DNA of 45,122 bases. It comes from a virus. The stretch is taken from UHGV virus genome UHGV-0415709; one strand, 5' to 3'. The position numbers and the translations under genes are program-made. Shown piece after piece: positions 2,962 to 33,367 of the stretch; the stretch's first letter is position 1, and every line of letters begins with the position of its first letter. Below the pieces are notes generated by a model that was not told where the DNA came from, searched no databases, and was given only the letters and a program-made list of their open reading frames with translations.

Positions 2962-3030
2962 AGGTCAATATAAAGAAAGAGCCAAACAAACTCTTGCATC
3001 TGTTTGGCTCTGCGTCTGGCGTCTGGCTCT
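2962..3030 (-). terminator. rho-independent terminator (minus strand) with conserved AGAGCC...GGCTCT / GCGTCT-GCGTCT motif
   Basis: 11-bp stem agagccaaaca(2978-2988)/tgtttggctct(3001-3011) with 12-nt loop; on minus strand followed by UCUUUCUUUAUAUU; downstream of ORF 3035..3220; same flank motif recurs at 43731-43771. Confidence 0.5.
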
Positions 3031-4529: not shown

Positions 4530-5069
4530 TTACATCATATTACGAAGCTTTTCAATATACCTTTTCATGGTTTCTCTTTCTTCCCGGCAGTCGGCATCTT
4601 TGGACATTTCGCCTAATTCTTCTGTCAGTTCGTCCATATGCTCTTCCAGGGCTGCAAGCATACGGCGCTTGCAATCTTCATCTTTTCCACCACTTCTGTA
4701 GCTCTGCTTCTGATTCATGTAGTCATCATAGGCCGGTCCAGTGGCGCGACTGTAGTGTCCTCTGACATAATGTTTCCCGCGTGTGCCGCGATAAGAACTG
4801 TCACTATCATAGTCCTGCGACATTCCATCAGCACGGCTATAACGTCCCATGCTGTCGCGCTTGCGACGCGCTTCGCTGTATTCTCCGCCGTCCATTTCGT
4901 CCATTACCTGATTGTAGTACTCTTCTTTGCACTTCCAGTACTCCACATTCTCCATGTCTTTCCACATGTCTATCAGTTTGTATGCGGTTTCAAGGTTGCT
5001 AGTGTTCAGGCCCTTTTCCGCAATCTTATCCAGCTCTTCGTGGATATTCTGCATCATCTTATAACTCAT
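4530..5069 (-). CDS. hypothetical highly charged protein (179 aa; Y/R/S/D-rich centre)
   Basis: ORF with low-complexity charged core (SYRGTRGKHYVRGHYSRATG...); part of accessory island. Confidence 0.4.
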   Translation of the reverse strand: MSYKMMQNIHEELDKIAEKGLNTSNLETAYKLIDMWKDMENVEYWKCKEEYYNQVMDEMDGGEYSEARRKRDSMGRYSRADGMSQDYDSDSSYRGTRGKHYVRGHYSRATGPAYDDYMNQKQSYRSGGKDEDCKRRMLAALEEHMDELTEELGEMSKDADCREERETMKRYIEKLRNMM

Positions 5070-5081
5070 AGCCTTACCCCC

Positions 5082-5513
5082 TTAACCTATTCTGCTAACA
5101 ACAAGGTTAGCGTCTGATACTGTCGCCGCTGTGGCTCCAACGTTTTTTACCGATAAGGTAGCGCAACATGGTTTGCACACCCTTACTTCTACAGTTGCTG
5201 CTCCATTGATTGTTGCGCCAGCGGCAACTGTGTTCTGGATTCTTGCACCGGGAATTCCTTCGCCGTCCTGCTGCACTTCAAAAATAACGTCACCTGCTGC
5301 GGCTGCGGAAAAGTTTCCGTTAAAGCCTACACGGTACAGGCCAGGAAGTAAAACCACTCTCCCAGAAAGTGGCTCGTGCCTTATATTTGGGCAATTACAG
5401 GAATATACCCGGTTTGCTGCAAACAGTACACTTCCATTGACTTCAACAGTCTGTGTGCCAGCAGTTACAAAATCTGCCATAATAAAATCCTCCTTATATG
5501 CACAGAAGGGCAA
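5082..5513 (-). CDS. protein with BclA-C-terminal-like (C1q/TNF-like jelly-roll) pattern
   Basis: Alternating hydrophobic beta-strand pattern (GLYRVGFNGNFSAAAAGDVIFEVQQDG...ATINGAATVEVRV...TLSVKNVG...LVVSRIG) resembles exosporium BclA C-terminal domains; probable start MADFVTAG internal to track ORF. Confidence 0.3.
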   Translation of the reverse strand: MPFCAYKEDFIMADFVTAGTQTVEVNGSVLFAANRVYSCNCPNIRHEPLSGRVVLLPGLYRVGFNGNFSAAAAGDVIFEVQQDGEGIPGARIQNTVAAGATINGAATVEVRVCKPCCATLSVKNVGATAATVSDANLVVSRIG

Positions 5514-5546
5514 GCCTGTGCCTACCCCTCCATGTGTGTAATACTA

Positions 5547-5783
5547 CTATTCAGTAGACATGTCCTTTTCGGACAAGATACGCAATATACGGTTGTTTTG
5601 GTCGATAATCTTCTCCATGTATTCTTTATTTTGCTGTTGCAACGCCTCTAATATATCATTATTAGAAACGTCACCAACGAGTAAAAGCAAATCTATCATT
5701 TGCAATGCAGTTGCATACAAAGCAAGATTATCATAAAACTGCTCGTTTCGATTTAGCATCCGCATCCAGTATTGCATCCACAA
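5547..5783 (-). CDS. hypothetical protein (78 aa)
   Basis: ORF only; overlaps next gene by ~30 nt. Confidence 0.3.
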   Translation of the reverse strand: MWMQYWMRMLNRNEQFYDNLALYATALQMIDLLLLVGDVSNNDILEALQQQNKEYMEKIIDQNNRILRILSEKDMSTE

Positions 5784-6463
5784 CCACAGTTAGAGGCATA
5801 TGGATATGGTGCCGGAACCGTATAAGCCGGTACAGGCTGCGGCTGACGAAGCTGTGCAACGATGGTGTTACCAACTGCATCAATAAAGCCGTTCTGGGCA
5901 GTCTGGCTTGCCTGGAACCTAAGAGTCTGATTTTCTGCCTGGAGACTGGAAATCTTGTCCTGGGTTAAGAAGTCAAGGATAGCCCTGGTGTTGCTGTTGT
6001 TGTTATCCAGTAAATCCCTTGTGGCGTTCTGGATTGTATTTCTGGTATCACATGACTGTGTTGCCAGATTGTAGTTTACGCCGTCAATTGCGCGCTGTGT
6101 CTGGCAGCAGCAATCCTGGAGCTGATAGCCCATCTGGCATAAGCTGCGGTCAACACCGTTGAATCCGCTGGTGATAGTGTTGTTCAGCGCGTATGTGCTG
6201 TCACAGATACCCTGCTGGATACCCCTAATTCCGTTTTCTATACCGTTCAAAGCAAAGCCCTCATTGATATCTGCTCTGGTAGCAAGACCCTGGAGTCCCG
6301 CGCCATTTGCACCGTTTCCGCCGAAGCCATTGCCCCAGCCTCCCCCGGCGAACAGGAAGAGAACGATAATCCAAATCCAATCTCCCCACATACCGTCACC
6401 ATTTCTGTTATTTCCGTTTCCTGTAGCGGCTGCAATGTCCGCTAAAGAGTAACCACTTTCCAT
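5753..6463 (-). CDS. membrane-anchored Gly-rich / Cys-cluster protein
   Basis: One N-terminal TM (WIWIIVLFLFAGGGW), glycine-rich GNG repeats, CCC triplet and C-terminal CGCGCNTGCGC. Confidence 0.45.
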   Translation of the reverse strand: MESGYSLADIAAATGNGNNRNGDGMWGDWIWIIVLFLFAGGGWGNGFGGNGANGAGLQGLATRADINEGFALNGIENGIRGIQQGICDSTYALNNTITSGFNGVDRSLCQMGYQLQDCCCQTQRAIDGVNYNLATQSCDTRNTIQNATRDLLDNNNSNTRAILDFLTQDKISSLQAENQTLRFQASQTAQNGFIDAVGNTIVAQLRQPQPVPAYTVPAPYPYASNCGCGCNTGCGC

Positions 6464-11368: not shown

Positions 11369-11578
11369 TTATGCCAAGAAATACCCATTTTCCTTTGCCG
11401 TATTCCATTCTGTTTCCCTAAATACCAATTCCGTTTTGTCTTTCTGTCCATAGCAATCATATTCCAGAAAAACTTTCAGTAGTTTTTCCTTAGATGGTTT
11501 TCCGAACTTTTTTTCATATTCCTCTGTTATATCTTCAATTTTATAGACAGACAAAATAAAATGTTCTAATACATTCAT
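11369..11578 (-). CDS. hypothetical protein (69 aa)
   Basis: ORF between terL and portal; ATGA overlap with terL stop. Confidence 0.4.
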   Translation of the reverse strand: MNVLEHFILSVYKIEDITEEYEKKFGKPSKEKLLKVFLEYDCYGQKDKTELVFRETEWNTAKENGYFLA

Positions 11579-12837
11579 TATGCGCTGTTCCCCCTTCTCA
11601 TTGATAATGGGCTTGTGGCATAGCGGAGTGCATCAATCCAGTGGTCGTTTCCATCCGGGTAATCCGATATCACCTCACCGTTGCTGTCAACCTCATGCTC
11701 ATATTCTATGATTTCTTTGTATGCCCGCGGTGTACGTGCCGGGTCTATAACGATTGTACGGCATTGCAACCATTCAAATGTATATTTTCTGCTCCCAGGT
11801 CCAGCAGACGCATCCCTGGCCGGAAGTCCCGCATCTCGAAAATCTATAACAAATTCATCATCATCCAATCCGCAGTATATCATATAGTCATCGTATCCAG
11901 CTTTTTTGATTTGTTTTGCCATTTCTTTTACTCGGATTTTGCATCCTCCCAATTCGTCTAATAAGATAATTTTTTCTTTGTTTGGCACATAAGCTGCACG
12001 AATAAATGCTTTAGGGTCAGGCCACCATCCCCAGTCCTGCCCTTGATATATGCTTTCGTATTTCTGTATTTCTTCATCCGTGATTGTTCTAATTTCCAGC
12101 ATATCAAATATATTTGTGCCAAGCCCAACCGGCAAACCTAAATACTCGTGGTTATATGCCCGCTCATTAGTGGCTTTAAGATGTTCAGCGCGTTCAATAA
12201 ACTTTTCTCCCAGCCATTCAATCGGCACAGAACGGTAATCGCTTTTATGCCTATACGCGCTATCGTCTGGAGTATTCACATACTGATTAGCCCAGTTGCT
12301 TTGACTGATAGGCGGGTTGAAGGATTTAAATACAACAAACTTGCTGCCACCACGCAATACTGACTGCTCAACAGTTCGTATTTCTTCCGGTCCTGCAAAT
12401 TCGTCCAGTTCCTCGAACCATAGATATTTAAAGTATCCTTTACTGGCTTTTATAGATTTTGTTTTCTTTGCCTTGTCAAGTCCACGGAATATTATTTTTT
12501 GTCCTGTCGGCTTATAAACAAATCGGTATGGACTTGTACGGGATTCCCATAAGTCTGTTACACCCAATGCATCTATGGCCCACTGTATCTGCTCAAAGAC
12601 TGATTCTCCAATGGTTACGGCATATTTACGGAATATAACAGCATTGGCCTCTGGGTCGTCCATCATACCTAGCACAATCTCCGCTGATATAAAAGAGGAC
12701 TTTGCGGAACCTCGCCCGCCGTACAGGTCGTAATATGTATGATTACCGTCCAGAATATCCCAGTGAACGTCATAGAAGGATGGGGCGATTACGTCAGTCA
12801 GATTTATTGTTGTCTGGTCTTGGTATGTTGTTGACAA
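11578..12837 (-). CDS. terL: terminase large subunit
   Basis: Walker A-like GGRGSAKS near N-terminus; C-terminal nuclease-like acidic motifs; follows terS. Confidence 0.8.
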   Translation of the reverse strand: MSTTYQDQTTINLTDVIAPSFYDVHWDILDGNHTYYDLYGGRGSAKSSFISAEIVLGMMDDPEANAVIFRKYAVTIGESVFEQIQWAIDALGVTDLWESRTSPYRFVYKPTGQKIIFRGLDKAKKTKSIKASKGYFKYLWFEELDEFAGPEEIRTVEQSVLRGGSKFVVFKSFNPPISQSNWANQYVNTPDDSAYRHKSDYRSVPIEWLGEKFIERAEHLKATNERAYNHEYLGLPVGLGTNIFDMLEIRTITDEEIQKYESIYQGQDWGWWPDPKAFIRAAYVPNKEKIILLDELGGCKIRVKEMAKQIKKAGYDDYMIYCGLDDDEFVIDFRDAGLPARDASAGPGSRKYTFEWLQCRTIVIDPARTPRAYKEIIEYEHEVDSNGEVISDYPDGNDHWIDALRYATSPLSMRRGNSA

Positions 12838-13192
12838 TGGTAATCCCGCCGCCCTCCTGCTTCTTATCTGTATCTATCTTGCGCTTTGCCAGTTCCACCG
12901 CTGCTTTGGTTCTCTCTGCCAGTGGAGCATCAAGTCCGAATTGGTCCTTGACCTCTCCACGCATTACGGAGGTAAGATATTGTAATATTTCAGCAGCATC
13001 AGCTATGCGGCAATCATCAATTTGTTTCTGCCGTTCAGAGATATATGCAGCAACCGTAGGCTTCCGTAAGTTTTCACGTCCTATTGCGTCTGCTGTCCGT
13101 AAGCTATAACCAGCCTTTCTCGCAGCTTCTGCCGCATTACCGCACTCTATGTAATAATCTGCAAACGCTTTCTGCTTCGGTGTAAGCTCCAC
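12794..13192 (-). CDS. terS: terminase small subunit (HTH type)
   Basis: LTPKQKAFADYYIECGNAAEAARKAGYS HTH typical of terS; overlaps terL start. Confidence 0.65.
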   Translation of the reverse strand: MELTPKQKAFADYYIECGNAAEAARKAGYSLRTADAIGRENLRKPTVAAYISERQKQIDDCRIADAAEILQYLTSVMRGEVKDQFGLDAPLAERTKAAVELAKRKIDTDKKQEGGGITIVNNIPRPDNNKSD

Positions 13193-14345: not shown

Positions 14346-14747
14346 TTATTCATCCATCAATAGTTCTGGATTATCAAATATGTTTCCTATAATATCAATT
14401 CTGTTTTCCATTCCTTTCAGTGGGCCTTTATATTTTCCTCCAATTATATTGATTTCAAATCCCCCATTCTCAAATACCACTTTTGCTTTAAAACAATAAT
14501 CACCTATATAATTACCTAAATGTTGAATAATATCATTTTCAAAAATCCTTATTCCTAATATGTTATCTATTCCACTATATTCACATATAGTTTCTGGAAA
14601 AACCTTATAATTATCAATTTCTTCTTGCGGTATATTTTGAATTATGTATGTTCCGTTATCAGTATGCAACAAATTTCCGTAAATCCATTCTCCTGTTTCT
14701 ACCTTTTTTCCTCTAAATAAAATATCTCTCATACCTATCCTTTCCAC
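14346..14747 (-). CDS. YopX-family phage protein
   Basis: ILFRGKKVETGEWIYGNLL...FENGGFEINIIGGKYKG matches YopX pattern. Confidence 0.6.
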   Translation of the reverse strand: MERIGMRDILFRGKKVETGEWIYGNLLHTDNGTYIIQNIPQEEIDNYKVFPETICEYSGIDNILGIRIFENDIIQHLGNYIGDYCFKAKVVFENGGFEINIIGGKYKGPLKGMENRIDIIGNIFDNPELLMDE

Positions 14748-15037
14748 CTTCCAAACAATGTCATCAACCGCCTATATTCATCCAGCGTTTTTCTTTGATA
14801 CCCGTAAAAATCATCCCGTTTGATTGGTATATTCTTTCGCTTGCTCAGCTTGTCATATCCGATATTACTTACAAGGCTTTCGTATATCTCCACCTCCAGG
14901 CCAGGAGCGGAGGATATGGCACACTGGAACAATGTTAGCTTATCTTCTACGCTGGCGGTCTGGCAGTATTCTTTTATGCGTTTGGCTTCATCATCGGTAA
15001 TGCCATAATCACTATAGTTCTTGTCCCTGGTCCTCAT
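14735..15037 (-). CDS. hypothetical protein (100 aa)
   Basis: ORF only. Confidence 0.35.
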   Translation of the reverse strand: MRTRDKNYSDYGITDDEAKRIKEYCQTASVEDKLTLFQCAISSAPGLEVEIYESLVSNIGYDKLSKRKNIPIKRDDFYGYQRKTLDEYRRLMTLFGRWKG

Positions 15038-15048
15038 AGCCCTCCTTC

Positions 15049-16095
15049 TTACACATTAACTCTTTCTCTTACTGAACGAAGAGTGCGCGGGTTAGACTGT
15101 GCATAATAACGTGCCGTAACTCCTGGGTCAGCATGTCCCATAATTTCCTGTATGGTCCCAATATCAACTCCTCTGTTTTTCAGATTCATTCCCAGCGTCT
15201 TACGTGACTTATGCGGATATACCCGACATGTTAGGCCGGCTCTCTTTCTTATGGTTTTCAATATCGCCCGAAATCCACAAGTAGTCATCTTTCCATACGG
15301 TTTTCTGGAGCGCGGGAACATATATGGACAATCATCTTTCCTGCTGTCCAAATACAGGCTATAGTAATACCGCGCATCATCATCCAGATAGATTGTCCGA
15401 TATCTTCCGCTTTTCTCTCCCTGTATCCAAATATCGCCGGTTCTCATGTCTATCTGGTCCAGGGTTATTTCCGCAATCTCACCTATCCTGGCTCCAGTAC
15501 TGCGAAGTACCTCCAGCAAGGCCCTCTCACGGATATTTTTGCACGCATCCCTTAACCTTGCAGATTCTTCCGGGCTGTAGTAATCAATTGGTTTAATGGG
15601 TACTTTCTTAGCTGGGATAGGTTCTACTGGATTGTCTGTAATTAATTTTTCAAGGCGCATCCATGTAAAGAAGGCTGACAGAAATCGGCGCTCGTTATTA
15701 TAGGTACTGGGTTGGTTTTTCTTTCCTCCTCTGGACACATTTCTGATTTCATATCGCGATAAATACCAATCAATATCAGTGGTATCCATCCGGTCCAGTG
15801 ATTTTGTGCTTATCTCTGTCAGCAATCTTCGTATGGAATTAAGATAGTTTTCTTTGGTTCCTCTTGCCAAATCACGCTTTTTTATCAGGAACAACTGTAT
15901 TATGTACTGATTCCTCTGGCTTATATCATCCTTTCTTTCTGCTGGGAGTGTAGTTATTTCCTCCATATTGACTCTAACTAATTCCTGTTGCATCACATTT
16001 TGCAGAATGGTAAGAGTCTGCTGCTCCATGATATATAAGGCCATTGCTACCAGTACATTGTTGATTATTTCAGCTTTTATTGTCTGTGTACTCAT
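15049..16095 (-). CDS. tyrosine site-specific recombinase (second integrase/Xer-like), located among early genes
   Basis: Catalytic motifs R..IGEIAEITLDQID, HKSRKTLGMNL, MGHADPGVTARYYAQ; probable start ATG 16095 (MSTQTIK, RBS gaggagga) rather than track start 16197. Confidence 0.7.
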   Translation of the reverse strand: MSTQTIKAEIINNVLVAMALYIMEQQTLTILQNVMQQELVRVNMEEITTLPAERKDDISQRNQYIIQLFLIKKRDLARGTKENYLNSIRRLLTEISTKSLDRMDTTDIDWYLSRYEIRNVSRGGKKNQPSTYNNERRFLSAFFTWMRLEKLITDNPVEPIPAKKVPIKPIDYYSPEESARLRDACKNIRERALLEVLRSTGARIGEIAEITLDQIDMRTGDIWIQGEKSGRYRTIYLDDDARYYYSLYLDSRKDDCPYMFPRSRKPYGKMTTCGFRAILKTIRKRAGLTCRVYPHKSRKTLGMNLKNRGVDIGTIQEIMGHADPGVTARYYAQSNPRTLRSVRERVNV

Positions 16096-16127
16096 AATTA
16101 TATCCTCCTCATTCGTATTGATTTTCA

Positions 16128-16157
16128 CGTCTGAGTAAGGTATGATATACTCAGACG
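16128..16157. promoter_or_regulatory. perfect 10-bp inverted repeat CGTCTGAGTA-N10-TACTCAGACG upstream of recombinase start
   Basis: cgtctgagta 16128-16137, tactcagacg 16148-16157; no U-tract after it on minus strand, so operator or RNA structure rather than canonical terminator. Confidence 0.4.
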
Positions 16158-16263
16158 TATTTACGGGAGCGGTGGAATCATCTTGGCGAGTGACCACCGC
16201 TCAGTTTTTATTCTGTGCATATAATTTGTTCCTCAATTTGTTTTTTCTTAGGTTTAGAAAATG

Positions 16264-16425
16264 TTAATTTTTAGAATCAATATAATCGCTTCTCACTTCG
16301 TCAAAATTATGACATTCATCCTCTGTTTCCTCGCAGCAATTATTGTATCCGTAACACCTTATACACTCCTTGCAGGTCTCGCCAATATCAAAACCAAAAT
16401 CCAGTATTTCATTCATGGTAATCAT
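16264..16425 (-). CDS. Cys-rich mini-protein, 53 aa (below ORF-track cutoff)
   Basis: ATG 16425 with RBS ccaggagg; MITMNEILDFGFDIGETCKECIRCYGYNNCCEETEDECHNFDEVRSDYIDSKN; stop TAA 16264-16266. Confidence 0.4.
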   Translation of the reverse strand: MITMNEILDFGFDIGETCKECIRCYGYNNCCEETEDECHNFDEVRSDYIDSKN

Positions 16426-17331: not shown

Positions 17332-17336
17332 ATGTT

Positions 17337-17510
17337 TTAATTCTCTGGGATATCCTTTTCCAGAATATACTCCAGGCAGGTGTGATTATTTTCTAAATAT
17401 GTTTCATTGCACATGACCACTATCCAACCTTTATCCAGGCTTTCTCTAAGAGCAGTCATAGGATTTGTATAATTGTTCGGATATGTTCTCACTACCTTCT
17501 GTTTTTTCAT
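17337..17510 (-). CDS. small conserved protein, 57 aa, copy A of a duplicated gene
   Basis: ATG 17510 with RBS ggagg; MKKQKVVRTYPNNYTNPMTALRESLDKGWIVVMCNETYLENNHTCLEYILEKDIPEN; ~90% nt identity to 24279-24452. Confidence 0.5.
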   Translation of the reverse strand: MKKQKVVRTYPNNYTNPMTALRESLDKGWIVVMCNETYLENNHTCLEYILEKDIPEN

Positions 17511-17543
17511 TCCACGCCTCCATCAAAATGTTAATTTGAATAC

Positions 17544-17982: not shown

Positions 17983-19026
17983 TTAATTCTCAGGAACAAC
18001 ACCAGGATAGCTATAAATACTCATTTGCCCCTGTGCCTCCCATGTTGTCCATGGTATTCCTGCGTAATCAAGTACATCTGCCATACCAAGCCCTCCCTGG
18101 CAAACTGGTTTCATACAGAATTGATATTGGTTAGGATATTGTTCCGCCATCCGTTGAAACCGGTTTGGTTCTGGCTCCAGATGTGCCCCGAACGCACAAA
18201 ACATGCATCCAGTACGTTGTTCTCCCGTGGTATAATACGTGCCATCTTCGTGCTGTTTAATATCTCCATACACCGAACATATCTTCACACTATTTTCCAC
18301 AACATAGCGAAGGATATCCTGTTTAGTCCAGAATCCCAATGGCTGACTCTTAATGGTCTTTCCATCGTAGACATTGCATCCAGTATGCGCATACTGGTGG
18401 GCACGTTTAAATCCTTCATCCTGTGTAATTCCAATATATGGGACACATCCGGTATCTTTAACAAATTTTTCAAACGGTTTTTTCTTCATGATTTCGCAGC
18501 ATTTATCTGACGTCTCAAATGGCGCGTTTACAAGATACTGCCACTTTTTCGCCAACATCCCAAACTTCCCACGTTCATCTCCATTGAGCAAATAATTTCT
18601 GTGTCTATCTGATAAGTTTCCATGTCTTAGCTTATAGACCTTTCTGGCTGTCTCTTTGCTTACTATTGGATAACCATAGTTCAAAATAACCTGCCGAAAA
18701 GAAATTCGTTTCCCATCTTTATCTTCTGGATATATTTCCCGATATTCTCCGCTGGCCTGCCGGGCAAAGCTCACTATCTCTGGAAACTCCAATCCTGTAT
18801 TTGAAAAAACTGCCGGAACATCATCACCTATGGTTTTCCGAATCATATGTAACAGCACTGTACTGTCCAGTCCACCCGAATAGCTTAGATATACCTGCCC
18901 ACCCCAATTGTCATACCATTCCTGTATTCTGGTTCTGCTGAGGCGCAGCTTCGTGGGCCAGTCCAAATATTTTCGCTGGCTGAACTGCCACGCGTTTAAA
19001 CTCAAATCATCCTCTTTTATAAACAT
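17983..19026 (-). CDS. PAPS-reductase-like / PP-loop ATP pyrophosphatase superfamily protein (DndC-like)
   Basis: PP-loop SYSGGLDSTVLLH near N-terminus; C-terminal Cys cluster (CMFCAFG...CMKPVCQGG). Confidence 0.65.
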   Translation of the reverse strand: MFIKEDDLSLNAWQFSQRKYLDWPTKLRLSRTRIQEWYDNWGGQVYLSYSGGLDSTVLLHMIRKTIGDDVPAVFSNTGLEFPEIVSFARQASGEYREIYPEDKDGKRISFRQVILNYGYPIVSKETARKVYKLRHGNLSDRHRNYLLNGDERGKFGMLAKKWQYLVNAPFETSDKCCEIMKKKPFEKFVKDTGCVPYIGITQDEGFKRAHQYAHTGCNVYDGKTIKSQPLGFWTKQDILRYVVENSVKICSVYGDIKQHEDGTYYTTGEQRTGCMFCAFGAHLEPEPNRFQRMAEQYPNQYQFCMKPVCQGGLGMADVLDYAGIPWTTWEAQGQMSIYSYPGVVPEN

Positions 19027-24151: not shown

Positions 24152-24179
24152 CCCGTTTTCCCTCACAAAAATGCTAAGT

Positions 24180-24271
24180 TGGCGGCGGCCGGAGTCGAAC
24201 CGGCACCCTCTTACTTTCCACCATGGTCTGTCCGGGGAGTTGAACCCCGCCCTGTGTACCACACACCGCCA
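24180..24271 (-). ncRNA. tRNA-like structured element, copy 1 (two T-arm hairpins, 7-8 bp terminal acceptor-like stem, ends ...GCCGCCA)
   Basis: Minus strand: terminal stem GGCGGUG/CGCCGCC; hairpins CGGGG-UUCAACU-CCCCG and GCCGG-UUCGACU-CCGGC with canonical T-loop sequence; no canonical cloverleaf found. Confidence 0.45.
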
Positions 24272-24278
24272 CTAATTT

Positions 24279-24452
24279 TTAATTCTCCGGAACATCCTTT
24301 TCCAGAATATACTCCAAACAAGTGTGATTATTTTCTAAATATGTATTGTTACACATAACCACTAACCAACCTTTATCAAGGCTTTCTCTAAGAGCATTCG
24401 TTGGATTTGTATAATTGTGCGGATACGTTCTCACTACCTTTTGTTTTTTCAT
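24279..24452 (-). CDS. small conserved protein, 57 aa, copy B of duplicated gene
   Basis: ATG 24452 (RBS aggagg); MKKQKVVRTYPHNYTNPTNALRESLDKGWLVVMCNNTYLENNHTCLEYILEKDVPEN; stop 8 nt from tRNA-like element. Confidence 0.5.
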   Translation of the reverse strand: MKKQKVVRTYPHNYTNPTNALRESLDKGWLVVMCNNTYLENNHTCLEYILEKDVPEN

Positions 24453-24463
24453 TTAACCTCCTA

Positions 24464-27166: not shown

Positions 27167-27257
27167 TGGCGGCGGCCGGAGTCGAACCGGCACCCTCTTA
27201 CTTTCCACCATGGTTATGCCAGGAATCGAACCTGGACCTGTGTGCCACACACCGCCA
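27167..27257 (-). ncRNA. tRNA-like structured element, copy 2
   Basis: Identical 52-bp core with copy 1; first hairpin CCAGG-UUCGAUU-CCUGG differs from copy 1 by compensatory substitutions that preserve pairing and T-loop consensus. Confidence 0.45.
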
Positions 27258-31840: not shown

Positions 31841-31990
31841 AACAAAGAACCGGCCCCTGCGCCAACAGGAACCGGCCTACATACCCGAAGATATGCACTA
31901 TAATTCGCACCTATATTGTACCATCTTCGGGGCGGCTTTGCAAGATATTTGCGGAGCTGTATTTTTTATACCTATTTTTAGGATAATTAA

Positions 31991-33079
31991 TTGAAGGAGG
32001 AAAGGAAAATGACAAAGAAAGCCCCGAAAAAGAAAATAGGCGAACTACCATCCAAAAATATCCGTGTACAATTATACTTATATACGGATGAGAAAGGTAA
32101 ACGGCATTACAAAAGTTTTGTTGCCCCATCACGCAAAATCGCACAAGAAATGGCAGCTAGATGGAAATTAGATATGAAGGACAAGCCCATAGAACAATAC
32201 AACGTACCGGAAGAGGACGAAGAAGATATTACAGTTAATGATGCTATTGAACGCTATTTAAACGCCAAGAGCGGTGTTTTAAGCCCTTCTACTCTTAGAG
32301 GGTACACTGGTCTGCAAAGACAGTATTTCGGCGGCGCATTTGGCCAAAAAAAGCTTTCAGAACTGACAAGTCCATCTGTGCAAATATGGGTAAGTAATTT
32401 AGCTGCAAAAAAACTATCTCCAAAGACGGTAAGAAATGCCTATGGTCTGTTATCTCCAACGCTGGAAATGTTTGCACCCGAATTAACTTTAAACGTTAAA
32501 CTGCCGCAGAAAAAACGTCCTAACTTATATTGCCCAAATGACAATGATATTAAAAAGTTGCTGGACGCTATTAAAGGCACCGATTTGGAGATAGCTGTAT
32601 TACTGGCTGCGTTTGGTCCACTTAGGAGAGGGGAGATAAGCGCTCTAACCGATAAGGACGTGGATGGAAAAATTATCCATGTAAGAGATAATATGGTCAA
32701 GGGGCCAGACAATCAATGGTATATCAAACAGCCAAAGACAGATGACAGTACAAGGGATGTAGAAATGCCCGCATTTGTAATTGACCGGATATCTGAAAAA
32801 AAAGGAAAGCTGGTTGATATGAACCCGGATTACATCACACACCGATTCGGGCGAGTACTCAAAAAGATTGACATACCCCATTTCCGCTTTCACGACCTCC
32901 GGCATTATGCTGCATCCATTATGCACGCTATAGGGATACCGGACCAATATATTTTGCAGCGGGGAGGATGGGCCAGCGATAATATTATGAAAACCGTATA
33001 CAGAAATGCAATTGACTCTGAAACCGTCCGGCAAAATAAAAAAATTAATAAGCACTTTGAAAAATTGAACAGCATGTAA
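31991..33079 (+). CDS. int: phage integrase (tyrosine recombinase)
   Basis: C-terminal catalytic signature HFRFHDLRHYAAS...GGWASDNIMKTVY; adjacent to repressor module and repeat-rich attP-like region. Confidence 0.8.
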   Translation: MKEERKMTKKAPKKKIGELPSKNIRVQLYLYTDEKGKRHYKSFVAPSRKIAQEMAARWKLDMKDKPIEQYNVPEEDEEDITVNDAIERYLNAKSGVLSPSTLRGYTGLQRQYFGGAFGQKKLSELTSPSVQIWVSNLAAKKLSPKTVRNAYGLLSPTLEMFAPELTLNVKLPQKKRPNLYCPNDNDIKKLLDAIKGTDLEIAVLLAAFGPLRRGEISALTDKDVDGKIIHVRDNMVKGPDNQWYIKQPKTDDSTRDVEMPAFVIDRISEKKGKLVDMNPDYITHRFGRVLKKIDIPHFRFHDLRHYAASIMHAIGIPDQYILQRGGWASDNIMKTVYRNAIDSETVRQNKKINKHFEKLNSM

Positions 33080-33089
33080 TAAAACGGCA

Positions 33090-33330
33090 TATTTTTCGTG
33101 TTGCATCGTGTTGCATATATCATAAAAAATATAATATAATCCTCCGTAATAGGCAGAGGAAGTGATGTTTAAAAACATGAAAAAACCTTGTAAATACGTT
33201 GTTTTTCCCGTATCTACAAGGTTTTATGGAAAAGCTGCTGACGGGAATCGGACCCGTAAAATACAACGGTTTTATGCGGTTTCCAGGCTCCGTGTTGCAT
33301 ATCGTGTTGCATATTTCCGAAGATGGTATA
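33090..33330. repeat. candidate attP: tandem CGTGTTGCAT arm-type repeats (2+2) flanking a 10-bp inverted repeat
   Basis: cgtgttgcatcgtgttgcatat 33097-33118 and ccgtgttgcatatcgtgttgcatat 33290-33314; IR aaaaccttgta 33182-33192 / tacaaggtttt 33215-33225. Confidence 0.45.
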
Positions 33331-33367
33331 ATATTTATAGAAGCGTCAGTGTAAAAATCTGGCGCTT

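Follow-up and report, generated by a model that had tools for sequence, protein, structure and literature searches.

A second, Xer-like tyrosine recombinase of Lachnospiraceae phages and its conserved two-hairpin leader with a predicted antisense RNA

The virus genome UHGV-0415709, a stretch of 45,122 nucleotides referred to here as the window, is the circularly permuted genome, ~45 kb long, of a temperate siphophage that carries, besides the integrase of its lysogeny module, a second tyrosine recombinase gene preceded by a perfect palindrome. Our interpretation, held with somewhat better than even confidence, is that this gene encodes an active, non-integrative simple recombinase, and that the palindrome is a hairpin of a control element acting at the RNA level in sense and antisense, and not a DNA site. 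That the element is a sense/antisense control device is something we infer from its sequence and from its behaviour across related phages. Nothing was found in the literature on this recombinase family or on the leader/recombinase arrangement, and no near-identical phage record was found for the recombinase region.

The longest open reading frame (ORF) of the second recombinase spans positions 15049-16197 on the minus strand and is read from a GTG at 16197. An initial annotation of the window had given the gene these limits; the ORF stands as the longest one, whereas its start does not. From the sequence context, the true start is almost certainly the ATG at 16095 (15049-16095, 348 amino acids plus stop), since a GAGGAGG Shine-Dalgarno sequence (16104-16110, minus strand) lies 8 nt upstream of it, most full-length homologues have 342-352 amino acids, and the interval 16096-16197 is a conserved non-coding leader. 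In a gap-free comparison, the stretch from the ribosome site to the ATG was unchanged in five of six close relatives. The protein matches the Pfam family Phage_integrase (PF00589, E = 1e-30) and has an N-terminal SAM-like core-binding domain. Residues R203, K228, H295, R298, H321 and Y331 are invariant in 31 homologues, in agreement with the intact R...HxxR...Y signature reported before, and the same catalytic positions are present by eye in members with only 26-39% identity. The best solved relatives are the archaeal XerA and the E. coli XerD, which fits the Xer-like type proposed earlier. The nearest NCBIfam models are those of XerA, XerD and XerC, and the scores place the protein outside the XerA, XerD, XerC and XerS equivalogs (142 versus a cut-off of 220, 98 versus 330, 91 versus 335 and 43 versus 267, respectively) and far below the cut-offs of the integron integrase models (58 versus 265 and 30 versus 435).

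An AlphaFold model of the protein (pLDDT 74) contains the usual two domains and an additional pair of N-terminal helices at residues ~3-40, a departure from plain Xer proteins. With a pLDDT of only 68-76 in this region, residues 3-40 are predicted to form two helices and not the beta-sheet fold of an arm-binding domain. We used the term simple (Xer-type) for recombinases with core-binding and catalytic domains only, without a beta-type arm-binding domain (PMC8138268); these are uncommon in phages, with 27 phages carrying them versus 410 with arm-binding forms (PMC8138268). The ratio of nonsynonymous to synonymous substitution rates (dN/dS) was 0.04-0.08 against nine close relatives, and the ORF is intact in 27 of the 31 genome loci at 50% protein identity or more. 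Degradation to a pseudogene in relatives, which the initial annotation had named as grounds for discarding its proposal, is therefore not what is seen. As the catalytic residues are kept, dN/dS is low and the ORFs are intact, the gene can be taken, with very little doubt, to encode a functional recombinase and not a decaying copy. A pairwise BLASTP comparison gave no significant similarity to the lysogeny integrase of the window (E 0.53), and the protein matches none of the defence-system models. Based on its domains, catalytic residues and structural relatives, we classify the protein as a strongly constrained, Xer-like tyrosine recombinase, probably of the simple type, that is separate from the lysogeny integrase. 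It would add a previously undescribed member to the simple tyrosine recombinases.

Upstream of the gene, the palindrome CGTCTGAGTA-N10-TACTCAGACG is found exactly at 16128-16157, where it had been reported, and its arms extend further to a perfect 11 bp (16127-16137 and 16148-16158), 32-63 nt upstream of the ATG at 16095. Judged from the window alone, its non-randomness is only borderline: the window has two perfect 11-bp hairpin-type repeats with a spacing of 3-20 nt, compared with 0.3 expected and a maximum of two in Markov-1 simulations (n=30). What makes the palindrome non-random is its conservation across more than 30 lineages, in which its changes are compensatory. It forms hairpin 2 in a two-hairpin element of ~90 nt that accompanies this recombinase, a structured 5' leader (16119-16206, minus strand) made up of hairpin 1, a linker, hairpin 2 and a tail, and delimited by a covariance model (R1), folding and covariation. 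Hairpin 2 (16127-16158), read as a hairpin of the sense mRNA, consists of ACGTCTGAGTA, a 10-nt loop and TACTCAGACGT. Hairpin 1 (16167-16202), which is supported by folding, covariation and terminator calls, consists of GAGCGGTGG, an 18-nt conserved loop and CCACCGCTC; it reads on both strands, as the 5'-proximal leader hairpin in the sense direction and as the predicted terminator hairpin of an antisense RNA on the plus strand. Just upstream of hairpin 1, a conserved box occurs once per locus (16206-16223, minus strand; TATATGCACAGAATAAAA in the window and GAACATATGTRCGAA in other lineages). The box is a candidate sense promoter or operator, and no further copies were found that would mark a shared late promoter.

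The ~105 nt ahead of the ribosome site are conserved wherever the recombinase occurs, and each leader sequence folded singly gives the same two hairpins (z = -4.76 for the leader of the window). The stems are wholly different among lineages and remain complementary, with hairpin 1 having AAGCGGCAGA, AGCGATAAAT or GACAATGCG and hairpin 2 having GCTTAAGGA, CTACCTGAGTA or CCTGGGAG in place of the sequences of the window. In an alignment of 39 sequences, 90.9% of the cells were paired versus 35-47% in slid controls, a count that favours structure somewhat, as the alignment was registered by hand on the best-pairing register. Both sides change in 17 of the 18 stem pairs, and none of 500 shuffles matched the observed score. 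Among close relatives, the leader diverged by 0.02-0.09, compared with 0.25-0.50 at synonymous sites, i.e., 3-11 times more slowly.

The covariance model finds a single copy in the window (100 bits, the next match being at 16.6 bits) and hits 70 of 87 loci at E <= 0.1 with at most one copy per locus (~1 Mb of IMG/VR DNA). Across ~2 Mb of related DNA, the leader was always found directly 5' of the recombinase, on the same strand and once per locus. The same placement is seen in genome loci with protein identities as low as 50%, and a scan with the loop sequence recovered the leader also upstream of recombinases with 39%, 37% and 26% identity. No Rfam 15 family covers the leader, be it that of the window or those of 12 diverse loci. 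We thus regard it as nearly certain that the palindrome belongs to a structured element under selection. The leader is a distinct RNA element, undescribed so far, that goes with an operon of recombinase and late activator in Lachnospiraceae phages.

On the opposite strand, the same sequence resembles a small-RNA gene. The conserved loop of hairpin 2 (ATTATA) is the reverse complement of TATAAT and the conserved tail (TCAA/GCAA) that of TTGA/TTGC, and in the window a sigma-A-type promoter is predicted on the plus strand at 16118-16146 (-35 TTGATT at 16118-16123, a 17-nt spacer, and -10 TATGAT at 16141-16146; scanner score 9/12). In a survey of 33 lineages, all had TTGnnn followed, after a spacer, by TATAAT, TATACT, TACAAT or TATGAT on the antisense strand. 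The spacing, measured by script in 31 of them, was 17 nt in 29 and 18 nt in two, and for the other two (L087 and L151) an alternative promoter with a 17-nt spacing was found by eye. This spacing holds despite a hairpin-2 loop that varies between 8 and 19 nt and a changing distance from the arm to the tail. The mean promoter score was 9.05, versus 6.97 +/- 1.1 in random 110-nt windows from the same loci, 4.3% of which reach 9. An independent scanner placed TTGATT-17-TATAAT (10/12) on the antisense strand in L011 and L034, together with antisense terminators. Of the two arms of hairpin 2, one lies within the promoter spacer and the other over positions ~+1 to +6 of the predicted RNA.

On the antisense strand, hairpin 1 lies ~20 nt downstream of the promoter and runs into a U-rich tract in nearly all lineages; in the window, this T-tract is AGTTTTTATT at 16203-16212. 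Many lineages have an additional hairpin, GCCGGGG..CCCCGGC, that is terminator-like on the antisense strand only. It has the form GCCGGGG-N4-6-CCCCGGC, is flanked by A-runs and lies upstream of the leader, with the box GAACATATGTRCGAA following it (L034 at 5839-5856, L008, L035-L054, L060-L071, L152 and L160). From promoter, terminator and folding, a cis-antisense small RNA of ~58 nt is predicted on the plus strand (16153-16212; from ~16153 to ~16210, both ends inferred), which would fold into a single-stranded 5' tail and a terminator hairpin followed by the U-tract AGUUUUUAUU. Its terminator loop contains CUUG/UUGG, which fits YUNR, a motif typical of antisense recognition loops. Hairpin 1 has few G.U pairs (3/312 cells), as would fit folding on both strands, and hairpin 2, whose two arms occur together in the sense RNA only, has more of them (18/390 cells); the counts of G.U versus A.C as an indicator of the folding strand are informative for hairpin 2 and, overall, not decisive. 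Computationally, the arrangement thus shows two features of a cis-antisense RNA, a predicted promoter on the opposite strand inside the 5' region of the target and a predicted intrinsic terminator. We consider it likely that the antisense RNA exists, and it would probably be made constitutively.

A possible mode of action can be outlined as follows. The sense mRNA would start near the conserved box at 16206-16223. When no antisense RNA is bound, hairpin 2 would sequester its loop and 3' arm, leaving the ribosome site free, and the recombinase and the downstream gene could be translated. If the antisense RNA is present, the first contact would be made loop to loop at hairpin 1 of the leader, and pairing would then extend along the linker and on into the first ~6 nt, at the base of hairpin 2. 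The opening of hairpin 2 would release its loop and 3' arm for pairing with the Shine-Dalgarno sequence and spacer, and/or a substrate for RNase III would be formed; either way, the operon would be silenced, for instance in a lysogen. The duplex of loop 2 and the 3' arm with the ribosome site has a mean energy of -9.6 kcal/mol versus -5.4 for shuffled sites, and reaches significance (at most 5% of the shuffles as good) in 13 of 18 lineages. In folds extended to cover the ribosome site, the minimum-energy form shifts to pairing between loop 2 and the ribosome site in several lineages. We give translational gating of this kind an even chance. More generally, the expression of the recombinase appears to be tightly controlled. 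If the antisense RNA does silence the operon in lysogens, it would represent an unnoticed safeguard at the transition from early to late expression.

Several observations weigh against this interpretation. The antisense promoter, its start site and the terminator are predictions throughout, the loop of the terminator hairpin is unusually large with 18 nt, and the -10 box of the window (TATGAT) is weaker than those of its relatives. The complementarity between loop 2 and the ribosome site is also weaker in the window itself (z = -0.18), and the hand registration of the alignment tempers the pair counts given above. L152 and L160 carry the recombinase, the upstream box and the GC-rich hairpin next to it and lack the two leader hairpins, so the device is dispensable. 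The loop of hairpin 1 is nearly invariant across lineages, which pairing in cis does not account for, because both strands change together; another constraint must act on this loop, be it a protein, a target in trans or the loop geometry. No DNA substrate of the recombinase was found in the window. Lastly, the ORF that follows the recombinase in the window has no relationship to the Ltr-like proteins described below (hhalign probability 0.1) and no domain match.

Part of the evidence for the leader would also be expected if it worked in cis on the sense strand only, whether as a riboswitch, a thermosensor or a leader bound by a protein, with the promoter-like match being a by-product of an AU-rich loop. 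The hairpins covary and their loops are conserved, the ribosome site has complementarity to loop 2 and the 3' arm, and the near-invariant loop of hairpin 1 resembles a surface for binding a ligand or a protein. However, a function confined to the sense strand does not predict TTG/TAnnnT at exactly 17 nt in 31 of 33 lineages while the loop length and the arm-to-tail distance vary, nor the antisense-strand U-tract behind hairpin 1 in nearly all lineages, nor the second terminator of many lineages that works on the antisense strand only, and we judge this explanation unlikely. The same small RNA could, on the other hand, be the main product of the locus and use its conserved loop to act in trans, on a target in the host or the phage, the overlap with the leader being secondary. 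This would explain why the loop (CAUCUUGGCGGGUG on the antisense strand) is conserved beyond what cis pairing requires, and the YUNR motifs in it are typical of recognition loops; but no complementary site exists elsewhere in the window and the element never occurs away from this recombinase in the ~2 Mb of DNA, which makes a principal role in trans quite improbable.

The position of the palindrome, adjoining a recombinase gene, invites a comparison with crossover sites, in which case it would be the double-stranded lox- or dif-like core of a self-contained module such as Cre-loxP or XerS-difSL. The perfect 11-bp arms, their centre-to-centre distance of 21 bp (the same as in loxP) and the association of the element with the recombinase down to 26% identity agree with it. 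So does a hybrid leader in L045 (1939-2026), which is of the window type up to the loop of hairpin 2, while its 3' arm, ribosome site and recombinase (70% identity) are of the L043 type, so that the junction falls inside the centre of hairpin 2; this hairpin still pairs via two G.U pairs. Yet in the other hybrid leaders (L015, L032 and L050) the junctions are at the edge of hairpin 1, and such junctions would be expected from ordinary homologous exchange where the DNA is conserved. The two cleavages made by tyrosine recombinases are 6-8 bp apart, and for a dif-type site we required arms of ~11 bp around a centre of 6-8 bp (11 bp for difSL), whereas the arms here are spaced by 10 nt in the window and by 8-19 nt in its relatives. 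In addition, the arms vary with compensation and the centre is conserved, the opposite of the lox/dif pattern, hairpin 1 behaves alike around an 18-nt centre, and the genome holds no second copy, although a single copy is compatible with inter-molecular use. We thus consider a lox/dif-like core very unlikely. Folded single-stranded DNA sites, as in integron attC or the attP of the CTX phage, have an even smaller probability, close to negligible: the protein has relatives among the Xer and integron-integrase groups and the stems are kept by base-pairing and not by sequence, but attC sites have conserved stem boxes and variable loops, which is the reverse of the conservation found here, no GTTRRRY box is present, the integron-integrase models score far below their cut-offs, and the phage is a double-stranded-DNA tailed phage.

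The initial annotation had also suggested that the recombinase may belong to a nested mobile element, and a related option is a second integrase serving an alternative attachment site. Leader, recombinase and the following ORF do form a mosaic block with sharp borders (14737-16270, minus strand; 93% identity with related phages), and neighbouring genes differ between phages. Against a close relative, however, the flanks on both sides are unrelated and the borders coincide with gene ends, without terminal repeats or target duplications; the repeats that could be found around the block are at chance level (e.g., 14443-14459 with 16270-16286, 15/17 matches in AT-rich DNA). Many different phages have the module in the same place, with flanks replaced and not empty, and its position relative to the terminase is constant across unrelated structural modules. 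Moreover, host DNA was never adjacent in the examined loci, and the predicted fold of the protein has no beta-type arm-binding domain. A nested element or second integrase is thus most improbable, and the block looks like ordinary phage mosaicism. Contig ends do not cluster upstream of the gene; they are scattered 240-1265 nt upstream, and we attribute them to assembly breaks at the mosaic border and not to a physical end.

Since no DNA substrate was found, the role of the recombinase is a guess from its family and position. In the window, we found no dif-like site (Firmicute dif consensus, up to three mismatches), no second copy of the two-hairpin element or of its loop sequence, and no convincing inverted repeats bracketing an invertible segment. 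The palindrome is not of the protelomerase type either, as its centre is not self-complementary. An action on the tRNA-like repeats at 24.2 and 27.2 kb had been proposed too; no link of these repeats to the recombinase was found, and they gave no alignment to the compared part of the locus of the related phage L004. Most likely, and this is the least certain part of our interpretation, the recombinase carries out a lytic-cycle reaction at a simple site, e.g., Cre/Xer-style resolution or joining of replicating genomes. Such a role is favoured by the simple Xer type, the presence of a separate integrase, the position at the early-late junction and the seemingly tight control, while a resolvase-type function in particular, including the dimer resolution suggested in the initial annotation, is no more than a tentative proposal and integration is probably not its task. 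It is also conceivable, albeit with a very low probability, that the hairpins are the DNA substrate of the recombinase and a small-RNA gene at once, as cer is for Rcd. If so, the recombination state or the binding of the recombinase would switch the antisense promoter, and a lytic DNA transaction would be coupled to the translation of the recombinase and the late activator, in what would amount to a developmental checkpoint operated by a recombinase.

The separate parts of this arrangement have counterparts in known systems. With XerA and XerD, the recombinase shares the architecture of core-binding and catalytic domains and the full set of catalytic residues, and they are its best sequence and fold matches; it differs in scoring under the equivalog cut-offs, in its extra N-terminal helical hairpin, in being phage-borne and in having no dif-like site. 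The Cre protein of phage P1 provides a second, non-integrative recombination function. Cre-loxP and the single-recombinase modules XerS-difSL (PMC2731167) and XerH-difH resemble our case in having a phage-borne or stand-alone simple recombinase beside a palindromic sequence. Unlike in these systems, however, the geometry and evolution of the palindrome are unfit for a crossover site, and no partner or product was seen.

Regarding the leader, antisense control of transposases is known from RNA-OUT/RNA-IN of IS10 and from art200 with a 5'UTR hairpin in IS200, and these RNAs, as well as CopA/CopT of R1, sar of P22 and OOP of lambda, are short, constitutive antisense RNAs with a stem-loop end and a YUNR loop. 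The common trait is an antisense RNA, here predicted, over the 5' leader of a DNA-rearranging enzyme or regulator, combined with a hairpin that governs ribosome access. Here, in contrast, the target is a tyrosine recombinase (with a late activator in relatives) of a Firmicute phage, the predicted antisense RNA leaves the ribosome site uncovered, the conserved loop has 18 nt, and the system as a whole is a prediction from sequence. The cer site of ColE1 contains an internal promoter, Pcer, for the small RNA Rcd, and thus likewise has a small-RNA promoter within a sequence linked to Xer-type recombination; the present element has no sequence similarity to cer and is not supported as a recombination site.

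The recombinase is matched by 569 database proteins at E <= 1e-10, and where hosts are named, they are Lachnospiraceae (Enterocloster, Lacrimispora, Hungatella, Roseburia, Bariatricus, Diplocloster and [Clostridium] asparagiforme). As an example, the cultured phage phiCs5676-1 of C. scindens has a copy with 55% identity along with a separate integrase in its lysogeny module, so both genes are present there as in the window; the paper describing phiCs5676-1 discusses neither of the two recombinase genes. The gene can thus be viewed, from this distribution, as a conserved second recombinase of temperate siphophages of Lachnospiraceae. In ~90 loci examined for context, it lies on the early-gene strand as the last sizeable gene ahead of the packaging genes, and in most of them an ORF of the size of a large terminase follows 0.8-2.7 kb downstream, across differing terminase types and head modules. 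Lacrimispora-type elements are an exception, with the recombinase placed among DNA methyltransferase genes. A more distant case is the Terrisporobacter phage TPELB_ph1 (L002), where a 29%-identical tyrosine recombinase (4989-5984) lies between the tail genes and the holin, in a different context; this phage also has a serine-type integrase, and the leader model has no match there at E <= 0.1.

The recombinase gene heads a small operon that closes the early region, a short distance ahead of the terminase genes. A small ORF starts 6-17 nt after the recombinase gene in the examined loci, or overlaps it. In the largest cluster of these ORFs, Sigma70_r4 was found in five of nine (best 4.7e-7) and DUF1492 in three of nine, most matches being near or under the Pfam cut-offs. 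LtrA (Sigma70_r4) and LtrB (DUF1492) activate terS promoters in Gram-positive phages (PMC3753634). In many relatives, the gene right after the recombinase has matches to these two families and a position ahead of terS, and it is predicted to be a late activator of the sigma70-region-4/DUF1492 type. The window differs: its ORF of 100 amino acids (14735-15037, minus strand), which begins 11 nt past the recombinase stop with its own Shine-Dalgarno sequence, fills the slot held by the late activator in many relatives and has no detectable relationship to either family.

A module of leader/antisense RNA, Xer-like recombinase and, usually, late activator is thus widespread and portable in phages of major human-gut Lachnospiraceae, where annotation pipelines label it merely "integrase". 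Second integrase calls of this type are unfit for delimiting prophages or for inferring nested elements. The leader/antisense element is a candidate for a new RNA family with abundant covariation. What a non-integrative recombinase under such strong conservation does directly ahead of the packaging genes is a tractable question; phiCs5676-1 is cultured on C. scindens.

With regard to the remaining features of the window, terL (11578-12837) and terS (12794-13192) are on the minus strand, as is the long early region, which extends up to ~28 kb. Domain searches confirmed the YopX gene and the XRE-type helix-turn-helix gene in the neighbourhood of the second recombinase, and Cys-rich mini-ORFs are present near it in the ORF list, so that its context is as had been described. 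The separate integrase of the initial annotation was located by domain search at 31991-33079 on the plus strand, with the repeats adjoining it. An 18-nt inverted repeat (94% complementary) surrounds this gene (31913-31930 and 33317-33334), and downstream of it tandem CGTGTTGCATAT repeats occur twice (33098-33120 and 33291-33315), likely as attP arm-type sites. Near the head genes, Rfam matches to RAGATH-21 (2866-2952, 83.5 bits) and GP20-b (2797-2860, 40.9 bits) lie in tandem on the minus strand, and the only other perfect 11-bp palindrome of the window (2978-3011, 12-nt spacing) is found just upstream of them; GP20-b also occurs in the related loci L035 and L054.

The tRNA-like element of ~90 nt has two copies between early genes, within the early operon (24177-24270 and 27167-27256, both minus strand; 81-90% identical), each with a 7-bp acceptor-like stem and two T-arm-like hairpins. 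ARAGORN calls no tRNA in either copy; the 27-kb copy scores 26.1 bits versus the Rfam tRNA gathering score of 29, and the 24-kb copy has only a weak tmRNA match (15.4 bits). A direct repeat of 177 nt (17335-17511 and 24277-24453, 89% identical) duplicates an ORF of 57 amino acids, and its second copy abuts the 24-kb tRNA-like element. Finally, a protein of 347 amino acids with a PAPS-reductase domain (17983-19026, minus strand) matches BrxP (1e-16) and SspD (1.7e-10) in PADLOC, and phiCs5676-1 has an annotated PAPS reductase beside a ParB-like gene.

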